A DNA stretch of 64,000 bases from Lachnospiraceae bacterium (GTDB lineage: Bacteria; Bacillota; Clostridia; Lachnospirales; Lachnospiraceae). Within the stretch, counting starts at the first letter, position 1. Each line of letters opens with the position of its first letter. Made by a program: the position numbers and the translations under genes. Shown piece by piece: positions 43,467-48,758 of this stretch. The notes under the pieces are model-generated. The model did no database searches, was not told the DNA's origin, and saw only the letters and a program-made list of their open reading frames with translations. Location of the stretch: assembly GCA_014804695.1 (NCBI GenBank), contig JAAUZJ010000007.1, positions 53,545 through 117,544 on the forward strand, read 5' to 3'.

Positions 43467-43637
43467 TTATGCCTGAGAAATAGCACCTGTTGGGCATGTT
43501 CCTGCGCAAGAACCACAATCGATACACTTATCAGCATCGATTTCAAATTTGCCATCTCCCATGCTGATAGCTCCTACCGGGCACTGAGCTTCACAAGCAC
43601 CGCATGCTACACAAGCATCGCCAATTACGTATGCCAT
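43467..43637 (-). CDS. fdx: Clostridial-type 2x[4Fe-4S] ferredoxin (56 aa; absent from the ORF track because it is under 60 aa)
   Basis: My manual translation is MAYVIGDACVACGACEAQCPVGAISMGDGKFEIDADKCIDCGSCAGTCPTGAISQA. It has two CxxCxxCxxxCP motifs and an AAGGAGG RBS 8 nt upstream of the ATG. Confidence 0.9.
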   Translation of the reverse strand: MAYVIGDACVACGACEAQCPVGAISMGDGKFEIDADKCIDCGSCAGTCPTGAISQA

Positions 43638-43668
43638 AATCATATCCTCCTTATAGTTGTATAAGCAT

Positions 43669-43688
43669 AGTGATAAAAATTTATCACT
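43669..43688. promoter_or_regulatory. Palindromic operator candidate in the ferredoxin promoter
   Basis: AGTGATAAA-AA-TTTATCACT, with perfect 9-bp arms. It lies just downstream of the predicted -10, so it would overlap the transcription start. Confidence 0.35.
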
Positions 43689-43691
43689 TAT

Positions 43692-43720
43692 ATTCTAATA
43701 TAAAAATGAAGAATATACAA
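43692..43720 (-). promoter_or_regulatory. Sigma-A-type promoter for the ferredoxin gene
   Basis: On the minus strand: TTGTAT, a 17-nt spacer, then TAGAAT. Confidence 0.45.
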
Positions 43721-43722
43721 GC

Positions 43723-43821
43723 TTAATTCTCGTCATCTTTTTTCTTTTTCATCTTAATAAGGTTGCCGATAATAGCGATTCCTGCAACTACTACAAAAGC
43801 GATGGTTACAATTGTTTCCAT
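43723..43821 (-). CDS. Possible 32-aa small membrane protein
   Basis: My manual translation is METIVTIAFVVVAGIAIIGNLIKMKKKKDDEN: one TM helix and a basic/acidic tail. A GGGGAGG RBS lies 9 nt upstream. It sits 63 nt downstream of pflA with no terminator between them. Confidence 0.3.
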   Translation of the reverse strand: METIVTIAFVVVAGIAIIGNLIKMKKKKDDEN

Positions 43822-43884
43822 AATGTATTCTACCTCCCCTGAAATATATTTTTATCTTAACAGAATCCTTGCAGAGCGTGGATT

Positions 43885-44640
43885 CTATTGTTGTTCAGCG
43901 CGGCGTTTACGTATGCCTTCAAGAATTACTTCTTTTTTCTCAAGTAACAGTTTCTTCTCCATTGCGGGAACGCCCTTTAGTTTATATTCAATGCCTAACT
44001 TCTGATACTTATTTTCGCCCATTGTATGATATGGAAGTGCATCTAAGGCTTTCAGGTTTTTAAACTGGCCGATAAAATATCCAAGTTTATACAGATACTC
44101 ATCGTCATCGGTAAGTCCCGGAACAATGACATGGCGGATCCACATATCGACATTTTTTTCATTCAGATATGCGGCAAAAGCAAGGATGCCTTCGTTGGGC
44201 TGGCTGGTAAGTTCCTTATGCTTTTCAGGATCAATGTGCTTGATATCGAGCATAACAAGGTCTGTCAGCGTCATTAATTTATCCAGTTTAGCAAGCCATT
44301 CGGGATTGCCGTTTGGTTTATAAGCGATTCCGGAAGAGTCGATGCAGGTGTGAATTCCTTTTTTCTTGGCAAGTGTAAAAAGGTCAATGAGAAAGTCAAC
44401 CTGCATAAGCGGTTCACCGCCCGTTACAGTGATTCCGCCACCTTTATAGAAACTTACATTCCGCTCATACTGCTCGATTATATATTCCGGCTCCATTAAA
44501 GTACCGCCGTTCATCTCCCATGTATCAGGATTGTGGCAGTAGGCGCATCGCATGGGACAGCCCTGAACGAATACAACAAAGCGGACTCCCGGACCGTCCA
44601 CCGTACCAAAACTTTCTAACGAGTGAATTCTTCCTTGCAT
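43885..44640 (-). CDS. pflA: Pyruvate formate-lyase activating enzyme (radical SAM)
   Basis: GTVDGPGVRFVVFVQGCPMRCAYCHNPDTW (CxxxCxxC cluster) and GGGITVTGGEP. Confidence 0.95.
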   Translation of the reverse strand: MQGRIHSLESFGTVDGPGVRFVVFVQGCPMRCAYCHNPDTWEMNGGTLMEPEYIIEQYERNVSFYKGGGITVTGGEPLMQVDFLIDLFTLAKKKGIHTCIDSSGIAYKPNGNPEWLAKLDKLMTLTDLVMLDIKHIDPEKHKELTSQPNEGILAFAAYLNEKNVDMWIRHVIVPGLTDDDEYLYKLGYFIGQFKNLKALDALPYHTMGENKYQKLGIEYKLKGVPAMEKKLLLEKKEVILEGIRKRRAEQQ

Positions 44641-44803
44641 AGTTTATAGCCTTCTTTCTGTTTATTTTGATTATATTTATGATATTATTTTGTATTAATA
44701 TTTACATTCTATGTAATAAGTATTGTCAAGCTAGATATAGTATACCCTGTCATGGATAAAAAAACCAGTCTTTTATATTATAAATGCAGTTATAAATCAC
44801 ATA

Positions 44804-44845
44804 TAAAAAGCTGCACACCGTTAAACATAACGGATGTGCAGCTCT
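44804..44845 (-). terminator. Rho-independent terminator after the glycyl-radical-domain ORF
   Basis: On the minus strand: AGAGCTGCACAtCCGTTA-loop-TAACGGtGTGCAGCT followed by TTTTTAT. Confidence 0.75.
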
Positions 44846-44883
44846 TAGAATTTCAGTAATTCAATCAGCCATCTTGCGACTAA

Positions 44884-45129
44884 TTAGATACTCTCATGGA
44901 ATGTACGAGAGATAACGTCAGCCTGCTGTTCAGGTGTTAATTTAATGAAATTAACAGCATATCCGGAAACGCGGATTGTAAGCTGAGGATAGTTCTCGGG
45001 ATGTTTCTGAGCGTCTAATAAAGTATCTCTGTTGAGAACGTTTACATTAAGATGATGACCGCCTTTTGTTGCATAACCATCTAATAATGATACCAGGTTA
45101 TCTACCTGAGCTGTGTTTGTTTCTGCCAT
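44884..45129 (-). CDS. Stand-alone glycyl-radical domain protein (GrcA/YfiD-like; equals the missing PFL C-terminus)
   Basis: [81 protein letters not shown]. It contains the RVSGYAV radical-glycine motif and has its own AGGAGG RBS. Confidence 0.88.
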
Positions 45130-45192
45130 TTTAATTTCCTCCTCTAATATTCATATAGTCATAATTCGATAGCATGCGCTAACTTAAGGGTT

Positions 45193-45396
45193 TTAACGAA
45201 AATCATCAAGACCTTGTTCCAGAGTTGGAACACTGCATGCTAATGGTGTTCTGGAACAGTCAGTACATCCCATAGTCTGTACTTCTTTAGAATTATTGGA
45301 TTCGGCATCTACATCGACATTAACATGACCGACACCCTGTGCCATTCCTGAATCCATCATTTTGATAAAATCATCAATCATCTGTTTATCGTCCAT
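45193..45396 (-). CDS. Small Cys-containing ORF inside the PFL split (67 aa from ATG; 70 aa from GTG 45405)
   Basis: MDDKQMIDDFIKMMDSGMAQGVGHVNVDVDAESNNSKEVQTMGCTDCSRTPLACSVPTLEQGLDDFR. An AAAGGTGG RBS lies 5 nt upstream of the ATG. It has weak similarity to the glycyl-radical domain but no RVSGY motif. Confidence 0.55.
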   Translation of the reverse strand: MDDKQMIDDFIKMMDSGMAQGVGHVNVDVDAESNNSKEVQTMGCTDCSRTPLACSVPTLEQGLDDFR

Positions 45397-45420
45397 AACA
45401 ACCACCTTTATCTGTTTTTA

Positions 45421-47460
45421 CTATTTATTTAAGTCTAATTCAATATCACCAGCAAATACCTGATCTTCTTTACCAAGTGCACCAGGGATAATGGTAAATG
45501 TATTAGAAATACCATCCTGAGCATCCTTGAACGGAAGTTTGGATACTGAAGATAAGGAAGCTACTGCACCATGAGTATCACGTCCGTGCATCGGGTTAGC
45601 ACCGGGAGCAAACGGCTGGCCTTTCTTACGTCCGTCAGGTGTATTACCTGTAGCCTTACCATATGTTACATTAGAAGTAATAGTAAGGATAGAAGTTGTA
45701 GGAACACCGTTTCTGTAGGTGTGGTGTCTTCTGATCGCGGTCATGAATTTATGAACGATCTCCTGTGCAATAAGGTCAACACGGTCATCGTCATTACCAT
45801 ATTTCGGGAAGTCGCCTGTTGTCTTGAAGTCAACGATAACGCCGTCTTCATCTCTAATAGGCTCAACCTTTGCATATTTGATTGCTGATAAAGAGTCAGC
45901 TACGATAGACAGACCGGCAACACCTGTTGCGAAGTAACGTTTTACGTCTCTGTCATGAAGAGCCATCTCTGCTCTCTCATAGCAGTATTTATCATGCATA
46001 TAGTGAATGATATTCAAAGTATTTACATATACGTCGGCCTGCCATTCCATCATATCCATGAATTTAGCATATACATCATCATAATCAAGAACATCACCCT
46101 CTACAGGACGATATTTAGGTCCAACCTGTTTCTTGGTAACTTCGTCAACACCGCCGTTTAATGCGTAAAGCAGACATTTAGCGAGGTTTGCACGAGCGCC
46201 GAAGAACTGCATTTCTTTACCGATAACCATAGAAGATACGCAGCATGCGATACCGTAGTCATCGCCATGGGTAACTCTCATAAGGTCGTCGTTCTCATAC
46301 TGGATTGAAGAAGTCTGGATAGACATCTTAGCACAGTATTTCTTCCAGTTCTCAGGAAGTCTGGTAGACCAGAGAACTGTTAAGTTCGGCTCCGGAGAAG
46401 GTCCTAAGTTTGTTAAAGTATGCAGATAACGGAAGCTCATCTTAGATACTAACGGACGTCCGTCAACACCAACACCACCAAGAGATTCGGTTACCCATAC
46501 CGGATCGCCTGCGAAAATCTGGTTGTATTCAGGTGTACGAGCAAATTTGATCAAACGTAATTTCATAATGAAGTGGTCAACGAATTCCTGAATCTGCTCT
46601 TCAGTGAATGTTCCGTTAGCCAAATCTCTTTCTGCATAGCAGTCAAGGAATGTAGAAGTACGTCCAAGAGACATAGCAGCACCGTTCTGCTCTTTAACTG
46701 CGCAAAGATAACCAAAGTAAGTAGCCTGGATAGCTTCCTGTACGTTAGTAGCAGGTTTAGAAATATCGCAGCCATAGGAAGCAGCCATTTCTTTCATGAG
46801 CTTAAGAGCTACCATCTGCTCTGAAAGCTCTTCACGAAGACGGATTACATCGTCTGTCATAACACGTCCTGTAGAATCTTTCTGAGCCTGTTTGTCTTCA
46901 ATAAGATAATCGATACCATACAGAGCAACACGTCTGTAGTCGCCGATGATACGTCCACGTCCATAAGCATCCGGAAGACCTGTGATGATATGTGATGAAC
47001 GGCAAGCTCTCATTTCCTGATTGTAAGCATCGAAGCAGCCTGCATTGTGTGTTTTTCTGTGTGTGGAGAAGAACTCGCTGATCTCAGGGTCAACTTCATA
47101 ACCGTTGTCGGAGCAAGCCTTTTCTGCCATTCTGATACCGCCGTAAGGCTGAAGAGAACGCTTGAAGGGCTTATCTGTCTGGAAACCAACGATTGTTTCT
47201 TTGCTCTTGTCCAGATATCCGGGACCGTGGGATGTAATTGTGGAAATTACCTTAGTATCCATGTCAAGTACACCGCCGGCTTCACGTTCCTGTTTCTGTA
47301 AATCAAGAACCTGTGCCCATAAGTCTTTTGTGTTCTGTGTAGGAGCAGCTAAGAAAGAGTCATCGCCTTCATAAAGGTGATAGTTCCTCTGAATGAAGTC
47401 ACGTACGTTTACTTCATTCTCCCACTTGCCGCCTACAAAATCTTTCCATTCTGGTCTCAT
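45421..47460 (-). CDS. pflB: Pyruvate formate-lyase catalytic body, lacking the C-terminal glycyl-radical domain
   Basis: PFL-like throughout: active-site GIACCVSS (Cys-Cys) and [22 protein letters not shown]. It ends ...[22 protein letters not shown] with no RVSGY motif. An AGGAGG RBS precedes it. Confidence 0.9.
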
Positions 47461-47724
47461 TTTGAATAGCCTCCTGTTTTAATATATTTTTGATATGTTT
47501 AGCATGTCATATAAATTAAGAAAACATGCTTAAAATCCTGTATATTTATTATATTTAAATAATAAGGTTACGTCAAGTCGGGCAATTGTACTTTTTCTCA
47601 TACAAAGCATGAATTTTAATGTAATTTTTTGTGAAAAATGTATGATGTGGCTTGCAGTAATTGTGATTTGCGACTATACTGTATAGCAGAAAACTTACTC
47701 AAACAAAATCGGAGGTATAAAAAT

Positions 47725-47916
47725 ATGGCAGAAATAACGAAAGAGATGACAATTGGAGAGATTTTAAGGACAAACCCTGATGTGGCGCCTATACTTATGA
47801 ATGCGGGTATGCATTGTCTGGGCTGTCCTTCGGCACAGGGCGAATCATTAGAAGAAGCCGCTATGGTGCATGGTATGAATATTGATGATTTAATGGCACA
47901 GATTGAGGCACTGTAG
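47725..47916 (+). CDS. DUF1858 domain protein (hybrid-cluster-protein-associated redox disulfide type)
   Basis: [51 protein letters not shown] prefer the ATG at 47725 with a GGAGG RBS over the track's start at 47638. Confidence 0.8.
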
Positions 47917-47955
47917 AAACAACGTTTGGTATATTTTGCAAACTGTCTTTATGTT

Positions 47956-47990
47956 AAAAAAGGAATCTGAAATTGCTCAGATTCCTTTTT
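47956..47990. terminator. Bidirectional terminator (DUF1858 gene on +, mecA on -)
   Basis: AAAAAAGGAATCTGA-loop-TCAGATTCCTTTTT. Confidence 0.75.
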
Positions 47991-48005
47991 ACGTTCTTAT
48001 GATAT

Positions 48006-48758
48006 TTAAATATTTGCCAAAGACGGTATGGCCTTATCTTTGATGACCGGTTCAAAGTGCTCTTCCAGATAGGATTCTGCTGCGGATGAAAAAGGTTCCG
48101 GTTTGCCGTATTCGCTCAGAATGTTACAAATTCGGTTAAAGTCCGCGGTCTTAAGTCCCAGAGGACTTATGAGCAGAAGATATGAACCATCATTGTCGTT
48201 TTTGTATAATGAACTTGCGCCTTTGTATATTGGCGCGGCAATATGCGCAAGCTTTATTACGTCAGAAAGAGATACAAAGGAAAACATACGCTCAGTATGC
48301 GGAACGGAAAGCGCATCCTTATTCTGTGTGGAAGGTGTATTAACGGTATCGGAAGACGGCGTTGTCCGGCTCTGCTGATCCATCTTGCGCAGCATATCTA
48401 TCACCTCATCGGCATTGTCCGAAAATGCTTCAATAAGGTCATCGTCATCATCATAAACCTCGTCATGAACCGAAGGCGCAAATTTGGAAAAACGTGTATC
48501 GAGTTCTTCGGGGTCTTCCACTTTAGTTATAATAAGAACTATACATTCCGCGTTAAGGGGAATTGCTTCTATCATAAGCGGAATATCTTCTGCTTCAAAT
48601 CCGCATTCATAAGCGGCTAACTGCATCATATCACGAAACAGGGTTTTAGCCTTGTCGGTACCGTATGCCAGTTCGCTTATTTTTAATTCCCTGTCCGCTA
48701 AATCTTCTCTTGTGAGCGTGCAGCGAATCTGATGTTCGTTTACTTTTTCGATTTTCAT
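48006..48758 (-). CDS. mecA: Adaptor protein MecA
   Basis: MKIEKVNEHQIRCTLTREDLADRELKISELAYGTDKAKTLFRDMM is a MecA-type N-terminal domain. An acidic linker and a C-terminal domain follow. Confidence 0.85.
   Translation of the reverse strand: MKIEKVNEHQIRCTLTREDLADRELKISELAYGTDKAKTLFRDMMQLAAYECGFEAEDIPLMIEAIPLNAECIVLIITKVEDPEELDTRFSKFAPSVHDEVYDDDDDLIEAFSDNADEVIDMLRKMDQQSRTTPSSDTVNTPSTQNKDALSVPHTERMFSFVSLSDVIKLAHIAAPIYKGASSLYKNDNDGSYLLLISPLGLKTADFNRICNILSEYGKPEPFSSAAESYLEEHFEPVIKDKAIPSLANI

Follow-up and report, generated by a model that had tools for sequence, protein, structure and literature searches.

What is the stretch of DNA that separates the two parts of a pyruvate formate-lyase (PFL) in this Lachnospiraceae genome? 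On the minus strand of contig JAAUZJ010000007.1, within 64,000 nt that were analysed as a whole and are here called the window, the open reading frame (ORF) for PFL stops where the glycyl-radical domain should start, and this domain is encoded by an ORF of its own further downstream, with a third, small ORF lying between the two. The initial annotation read the interval at 45103-45462 as a discrete, possibly excisable cassette bounded by a repeat resembling a target-site duplication, or else as the product of a local duplication. The analysis presented here makes it highly probable that this interval is the junction of an old and conserved operon, PFL body-small protein-grcA3-pflA, and that the enzyme is naturally made in pieces. 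The GrcA3 family is known and is represented in NCBI annotation models, while the conserved third protein of 67 aa is uncharacterised; a literature search found no publication that deals with GrcA3, a naturally split PFL or the small protein. The parts of the locus needed for the argument are as follows:

45421..47460, minus strand: PFL catalytic body, 679 aa (TIGR01255, Pfam, alignment with PflB)
46245-46240, minus strand: codons of the catalytic Cys406-Cys407 of the body (IACCVSS)
45462-45457, minus strand: first hexamer copy, CAG GTA, encoding body Q667-V668 (aligns with E-V of PflB DDEV)
45421..45456, minus strand: acidic C-terminal tail of the body, 11 residues and stop codon (kept in 72 related loci and the window)
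45409-45402, minus strand: Shine-Dalgarno sequence of the small ORF, AAAGGTGG
45193..45396, minus strand: small ORF, 67 aa, ATG start (homologue clusters, substitution rates, hhalign)
45130..45192, minus strand: intergenic spacer, of highly variable length among relatives
45144-45138, minus strand: Shine-Dalgarno sequence of grcA3, GAGGAGG, within the spacer
44884..45129, minus strand: GrcA3, free-standing glycyl-radical domain, 81 aa (NCBIfam NF038360, Pfam Gly_radical)
45108-45103, minus strand: second hexamer copy, CAG GTA, encoding GrcA3 Q8-V9 (aligns with R-K of PflB)
44964-44962, minus strand: codon of GrcA3 Gly56 (motif RVSGYAV)
43885..44640, minus strand: PflA, radical-SAM activating enzyme for pyruvate formate-lyase, 251 aa (TIGR02493)

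The PFL body, GrcA3 and related loci

The body scores 1089.6 bits against TIGR01255 (formate C-acetyltransferase; cut-off 994.2), its residues 5-668 corresponding to positions 2-665 of the 744 in the profile, and it is equivalent to residues 10-681 of E. coli PflB, with the motif IACCVSS at residues 404-410. The C-terminal glycyl-radical domain is absent from this polypeptide, which leaves TIGR01255 positions ~666-744 unmatched and contains no radical glycine; the Pfam domains detected in it are PFL-like and only positions 1-51 of the 106 of Gly_radical. The 81-aa ORF matches the NCBIfam model NF038360, "autonomous glycyl radical cofactor GrcA3", with 161.2 bits against a curated cut-off of 158 (residues 5-81 on model positions 2-78 of 78), and its near homologues carry this name in NCBI records. 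GrcA3 covers positions 49-106 of Gly_radical (PF01228) and, with its residues 3-81, positions 661-744 of TIGR01255, from which it differs in length solely by a 5-residue gap after DGY. It is equivalent to PflB residues 681-758, and its residues 20-81 align with residues 66-127 of YfiD. The product of pflA, the next gene, scores 298.5 bits against TIGR02493 (cut-off 231.75).

The small-protein alignment was scanned against one genome per GTDB species, and a relative of the small protein is encoded in at least 466 species genomes, the best 80 of which are nearly all labelled Lachnospiraceae. Gene order and spacing were compared among 72 sufficiently complete loci found through the small protein, together with the window (n = 73). 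Without exception (72/72 loci and the window), the body of ~685 aa is followed by the small ORF and then by a radical ORF of 80 aa. The three-gene layout is also kept, with pflA next, in four distant lineages, two of them (L081 and L084) detected by way of highly divergent small proteins and two (L090 and L092) picked by GrcA3 alone. Homologues of the small protein form 1669 clusters at 90% identity, all of them named "hypothetical", and 189 clusters at 50% identity. The median ratio of nonsynonymous to synonymous substitution rates (dN/dS) of the small ORF is 0.066, with variation mostly at third codon positions; the 67-aa ORF is a real gene of an unnamed conserved family under strong purifying selection. 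In the window the body, the small ORF and GrcA3 (44884-47460, minus strand) share one reading frame, which looks accidental, since related loci use all three frame combinations.

These data also bear on the reading of the locus as a decaying PFL pseudogene, in which nonsense mutations would have left non-functional remnants. Such decay would agree with a body that stops where the radical domain should start and with five stop codons through the region. However, hundreds of species retain all three pieces, starts and Shine-Dalgarno sequences being intact, the small ORF evolves with a dN/dS of ~0.07, GrcA3 is 80-97% identical across lineages with RVSGYAV invariant, and pflA still adjoins. Genuine frameshifted PFL genes look different, with many fragments and no small gene, and decay is scarcely credible as an explanation. 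The five stop codons lie in the body frame between V668 and the GrcA3 ATG; given these and the frames that differ between loci, an intein or translational read-through was rejected as well.

The CAGGTA repeat and the PFL junction

The cassette reading holds that 354 bp were inserted into an intact pflB with duplication of a 6-bp CAGGTA target, such that precise excision would restore the gene. As an observation, what the initial annotation described is confirmed: the two CAGGTA copies lie at 45462-45457 and 45108-45103 on the minus strand, exactly matched, in frame and 354 nt (118 codons) apart, and deletion yields an in-frame ORF of 740 aa, consisting of body residues 1-668 and residues 10-81 of the 81-aa ORF. 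The contents ascribed to the insert are likewise present, namely stop codons for the body, the 67-aa ORF, Shine-Dalgarno sequences and the ATG of the radical-domain ORF. The collinearity of the rejoined ORF with PflB speaks for an insertion, as does the presence of the hexamer pair in 51 of the 73 loci.

The repeat itself carries little weight and can be explained by chance or constraint, since CAGGTA occurs 40 times in the window, one or more 6-mers are common to two ~70-nt segments of local composition in 75% of shuffles, and local codon use favours both of its codons (CAG accounts for 85-91% of the codons for Gln, GTA for 34-43% of those for Val). The loci that lack CAGGTA at one or both sites (22/73) differ by synonymous changes or by Lys in place of Gln in the body, and they nevertheless retain the supposed insert. 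The distance from the Gln/Lys-Val dipeptide of the body to the Gln-Val dipeptide of GrcA3 ranges from 287 to 1042 nt among the 73 loci and leaves a remainder of 0, 1 or 2 on division by three in 29, 18 and 26 of them, respectively. All three frames being used, the in-frame spacing of 354 nt in the window is a one-in-three coincidence. In the distant lineages L081, L084, L090 and L092 the hexamer pair is absent and the region is present, the bodies having KI, KV, LV or MV in place of QV. A discrete cassette marked by its duplicated target is thus contradicted by the persistence of the region wherever the repeat is missing. The CAGGTA pair is made up of the preferred codons for two conserved, non-homologous Gln-Val dipeptides in the linker, a caution for genome scans, in which conserved residues and codon bias can mimic a short in-frame target-site duplication.

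Alignment of the junction with unsplit PFLs points in the same direction. The QV of the body falls on TIGR01255 positions 664-665 and that of GrcA3 on positions 666-667, and against E. coli PflB ("...DDEV RK TNLAGLMDGY") the former stands opposite E-V and GrcA3 Q8-V9 opposite R-K (chain residues 681-682). The two dipeptides are therefore non-homologous, with an offset of 2 residues that appears alike in comparison with E. coli PflB, TIGR01255 and unsplit relatives. The linker from GK to NL has 7 residues in unsplit relatives and in E. coli, and 6 in one fragment. The join proposed by the initial annotation leaves 5, and is 2 aa short, whereas retention of both QV dipeptides would give 7. The statement that deletion recreates a canonical PFL accordingly holds only approximately, the rejoined ORF being collinear with PflB but short in the linker.

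Comparison with uninterrupted PFL genes does not recover an excised form. The exact joined sequence was used as a query against 5.8 billion protein clusters, and no rejoined allele was found among them; the full-coverage matches are fragments of unsplit PFLs with identities of at most 82%. The nearest unsplit PFL found (L089) shares only ~74% identity with the body and, in its C-terminal domain, 86% with GrcA3. The body is as far from the most remote split lineages as from this unsplit gene, so the split is old and insertion boundaries at the DNA level are not to be expected. In four unsplit relatives (L089, L094, L086 and L088), the interval from the PFL end to pflA contains no small gene.

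The body tail after V668 is kept in all split lineages, the 72 loci and the window as well as the distant ones, in which it reads KIFVGDLDIDL..., KVFMGDLDLDL... or MVFAGDLDIDL.... In a MAFFT alignment of the DNA this tail lies opposite a 10-residue segment of the unsplit L089, with its TAG stop opposite a Tyr codon, TAT. The derivation of the tail from the original helix, which that alignment suggested, lacks statistical support.

Proteins of ~100 aa with a Gly_radical domain were considered as evidence of another split point and rejected, all of them being pieces of unsplit PFL genes that are frameshifted (L086, L088 and L094) or broken by a scaffold gap (L089). Such "Gly_radical" database proteins, as those from L086, L088 and L094, could be mistaken for autonomous GrcA proteins.

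Features expected of a mobile element were not found in the searches made. Terminal inverted repeats are absent, the inverted repeats found being weak and none of them lying at the boundaries, and no mobility gene is present, the sole ORF of the region having no Pfam or mobility match and one weak NCBIfam match, to GrcA3. A second copy of the region is lacking in the window, and there are no matches to it in plasmids, phages or viral contigs, so that the search for further copies of the insert lends no support to a cassette. Part of the supposed insert is, moreover, itself derived from grcA3, as described below. Taken with the missing repeats, the varying frames, the offset dipeptides and the short linker, these results leave a 354-bp insertion very improbable.

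The small protein and the proposed assembly of the enzyme

The second option of the initial annotation, a local duplication, is supported by the first half of the small protein. Pfam gives no match to the small protein and no PF01228 radical glycine loop (RVxG[FWY]), and the match to the NCBIfam GrcA3 model is weak (E=0.086). Profile comparison of the small protein with GrcA3 by hhalign gives E=6e-4 with narrow alignments and, with diverse alignments, a probability of 95.5% and E=1.5e-8 for small-protein residues 3-34 against GrcA3 residues 5-36. In the distant lineage L081 the relationship is detected by BLASTP (46% identity over 35 aa, E=1e-10), and the two proteins begin alike with M-A-S. 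The common segment comprises the helix (PflB NLAGLMDGY) and strand β10 (HLNVNV) of the radical domain, in the topology of PMC8683613. The N-terminal half of the small protein thus has a helix and a β10-like strand, GHVNVDV, and is followed by a linker of variable length and a C-terminal motif, C47-x6-C54-x-V-P57-T-L-x-x-G-L-D, in which C54 and P57 are invariant and Cys47 is conserved. By these comparisons, the helix-β10 segment of GrcA3 has a paralogue in the N-terminal half of the small protein, which supports an ancient local duplication; the interval thus consists in large part of an old tandem duplicate of grcA3, favouring duplication over an inserted cassette.

A 669-nt metagenome contig (P0121) encodes a GrcA3 homologue of 103 aa with an internal tandem duplication of 22 residues, the product of misassembly or else a present-day case of local duplication in grcA3.

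Precedent for a PFL working in two pieces comes from E. coli, where PFL cut at residue 695 (tPFL) and combined with YfiD is as active as the wild type once activated, and where the tPFL:YfiD pair shows poor binding and activation because PFL residues 696-733, termed the "recognition element", are missing (Andorfer et al. 2021, PMC8683613). These results imply that a radical domain in trans can work and that the β10-containing segment matters for loading. YfiD (also GrcA, 127 aa) and phage T4 Y06I are, like GrcA3, free-standing glycyl-radical domains, and both are activated by the PFL activating enzyme and restore PFL that lacks a functional Gly loop (PMC13450708). Only YfiD-type spare parts are mentioned in that review of glycyl-radical enzymes, dated June 2026 (PMC13450708). 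YfiD rescues a full-length enzyme after cleavage by O2, has a disordered N-terminus of 60 residues and is encoded elsewhere in the genome, whereas GrcA3 lacks such a long N-terminal extension, begins one helix before YfiD does (PflB 681) and shares an operon with a body that is truncated at the gene level. The name of NF038360 implies a spare part for repair, whereas here and in every related locus examined GrcA3 is adjacent to a PFL without a radical domain of its own, which implies that it is the only radical-bearing subunit for the body.

By analogy with E. coli and from the co-operonic pflA, installation of the radical on GrcA3 by PflA and completion of the PFL active site by GrcA3 may be proposed. 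The body, equivalent to PflB ~1-680 with an acidic tail, would supply the Cys-Cys loop, and GrcA3 would supply the radical domain in trans, contributing the helix, strand β10, the RVSGYAV loop and the C-terminal helix. PflA would activate GrcA3, strand β10 of GrcA3 would pair with the open barrel of the body, and the Gly56 loop would lie beside Cys406/407. GrcA3 would in this way be an obligate and exchangeable radical subunit, and oxygen damage would cost the cell only a subunit of 81 residues. The small gene arose as an old tandem duplicate of the 5' half of grcA3 that kept the helix-β10 segment, lost the glycine loop and gained Cys-x6-Cys-x-V-P-T-L. Its β10-like module is proposed to occupy or prepare the docking site of GrcA3, or to pair with the GrcA3 strand, the small protein serving as a placeholder or as a recognition or assembly factor, with cysteines that possibly make this step redox-sensitive.

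In comparison with tPFL and YfiD, which also form a two-piece PFL, the natural system is cut at ~residue 680 and includes a gene that copies the helix-β10 segment, and by this analogy the small gene may supply what the engineered pair lacks. It is tentatively suggested that the small protein is a third component of the split PFL, a glycine-less, Cys-bearing paralogue that plugs or primes the barrel and controls the loading, exchange or O2-dependent release of GrcA3. It would then correspond, as the product of a separate gene, to the "696-733 recognition element" of E. coli PFL/YfiD.

Several points weigh against carrying the operon reading this far. In the AlphaFold2 (AF2) model of the small protein, only the N-terminal helix, residues 3-19, is confident (predicted local distance difference test, pLDDT, ~83) and the rest has a pLDDT of 50-70; this is compatible with a strand that would fold upon binding, and it proves nothing. 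The Cys motif is unlike the Gly loop (hhalign E=0.12) or any part of the body, and a standard Zn or Fe-S site would need more than the two cysteines and the single histidine that are broadly conserved. Binding of GrcA3 to the body, and of the small protein to any partner, is a prediction, and these data agree with more than one order of fission, duplication and truncation.

The same architecture would also accommodate a small protein that acts on GrcA3, as a safety chaperone or quencher of the radical through its cysteines, or that regulates PflA. Strand β1 of YfiD has been proposed as a safety lever that blocks activation until docking (PMC8683613), and a free β10-like strand could pair with the GrcA3 strand in a comparable manner. 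Cys54, which is invariant, and Cys47, which is conserved, would both fit a part in radical quenching or in the sensing of redox state, and the variable linker and acidic tails suggest a two-module tether. The C-terminal motif, however, resembles nothing known, and the data fit several binding partners alike; such a role is considered unlikely.

The C-terminal motif was also examined as a degenerate Gly loop or as a mimic of the ACCVS Cys-loop, and both were rejected as no hhalign signal was obtained. A profile search of the PDB with the small protein returned chance matches only. A protein of 1035 aa (P0280) has 14 repeat units containing QCTGCSKDALIICSLPML that match the Cys motif with E=1e-12 summed over the repeats, which is probably a chance match amplified by repetition.

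The small protein resembles the accessory subunits of other glycyl-radical enzymes in that both are small, contain cysteines and are encoded beside a glycyl-radical enzyme. The small subunits of benzylsuccinate synthase and 4-hydroxyphenylacetate decarboxylase use four cysteines to bind [4Fe-4S] clusters and have no relationship to the radical domain. The small protein differs from them in having two broadly conserved cysteines and in its derivation from the radical domain. The β and γ subunits of benzylsuccinate synthase and the γ subunit of 4-hydroxyphenylacetate decarboxylase are reported to modulate radical formation (PMC12590467).

Among solved structures, the closest relatives of the body are two PDB entries named "formate acetyltransferase", 38la and 38lb (687 and 739 residues), with scores of 1092 and 1123 bits over an alignment at 45424-47460 on the minus strand. 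The chain of 38la ends ...SLGKED, and that of 38lb continues GKSGNVMFGECD, sharing the start of the body tail. Both appear to be PFL bodies without a radical domain, as neither is matched by the GrcA3 query, and no GrcA3-like or small-protein chain is found in any PDB entry, including these two. Enzymes of this kind may thus be under study elsewhere, although the literature search yielded no publication on the two entries. Prediction of the body by AF2 from its single sequence gave a pLDDT of 33.

In many gut anaerobes pyruvate is converted to acetyl-CoA and formate mainly by PFL, and the Lachnospiraceae form a major part of the gut microbiota. If the arrangement proposed here is true, the "spare part" principle of E. 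coli YfiD would be the normal mode of operation in these bacteria and not an emergency repair, with a bearing on the oxygen tolerance of gut Lachnospiraceae, on PFL annotation, in which the body is scored as a complete enzyme, and on the inference of activity from metagenomes. The small protein would provide a handle on the question of Andorfer et al. (2021), how a radical domain in trans is recognised by and loaded onto its partner, and the finding would gain in interest if the small protein proves to control the loading of the radical subunit.

Putative transcription signals and gene neighbourhood

Features between grcA3 and pflA bear on the expression of the operon:

44806..44846, minus strand: strong hairpin followed by a T-run, 3' of grcA3 (inverted repeat, 12-nt arms, 92% complementary)
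44698-44670, minus strand: promoter-like site 5' of pflA, TTAATA-17 nt-TATAAT (promoter scan)

The hairpin and T-run look like a terminator or attenuator and, together with the promoter-like site before pflA, suggest that pflA is at least partly transcribed independently. A further promoter-like site, rated good, lies upstream of the body at 47576-47548 on the minus strand (TTGACG, 17 nt, TATAAT). No Rfam RNA family is found anywhere in the window. A second full-length PFL is not found among the window ORFs of at least 200 aa, a result that concerns the window only and leaves most long ORFs unscanned; the 748-aa ORF is a RecD2-type helicase.

The window is ordinary chromosome, as it encodes DnaB, GdpP, RecD2 and MecA. 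The neighbourhood at 43467-48758 comprises MecA, a DUF1858 protein, the PFL operon, a 2x[4Fe-4S] ferredoxin, DnaB and GdpP, and a MerR-family gene is also present in the window. The ferredoxin, which adjoins pflA, could be the electron donor of the activase. The same neighbourhood is found at the remote split-PFL locus L090 (1-7246), where ribosomal protein L9 is encoded between DnaB and GdpP.

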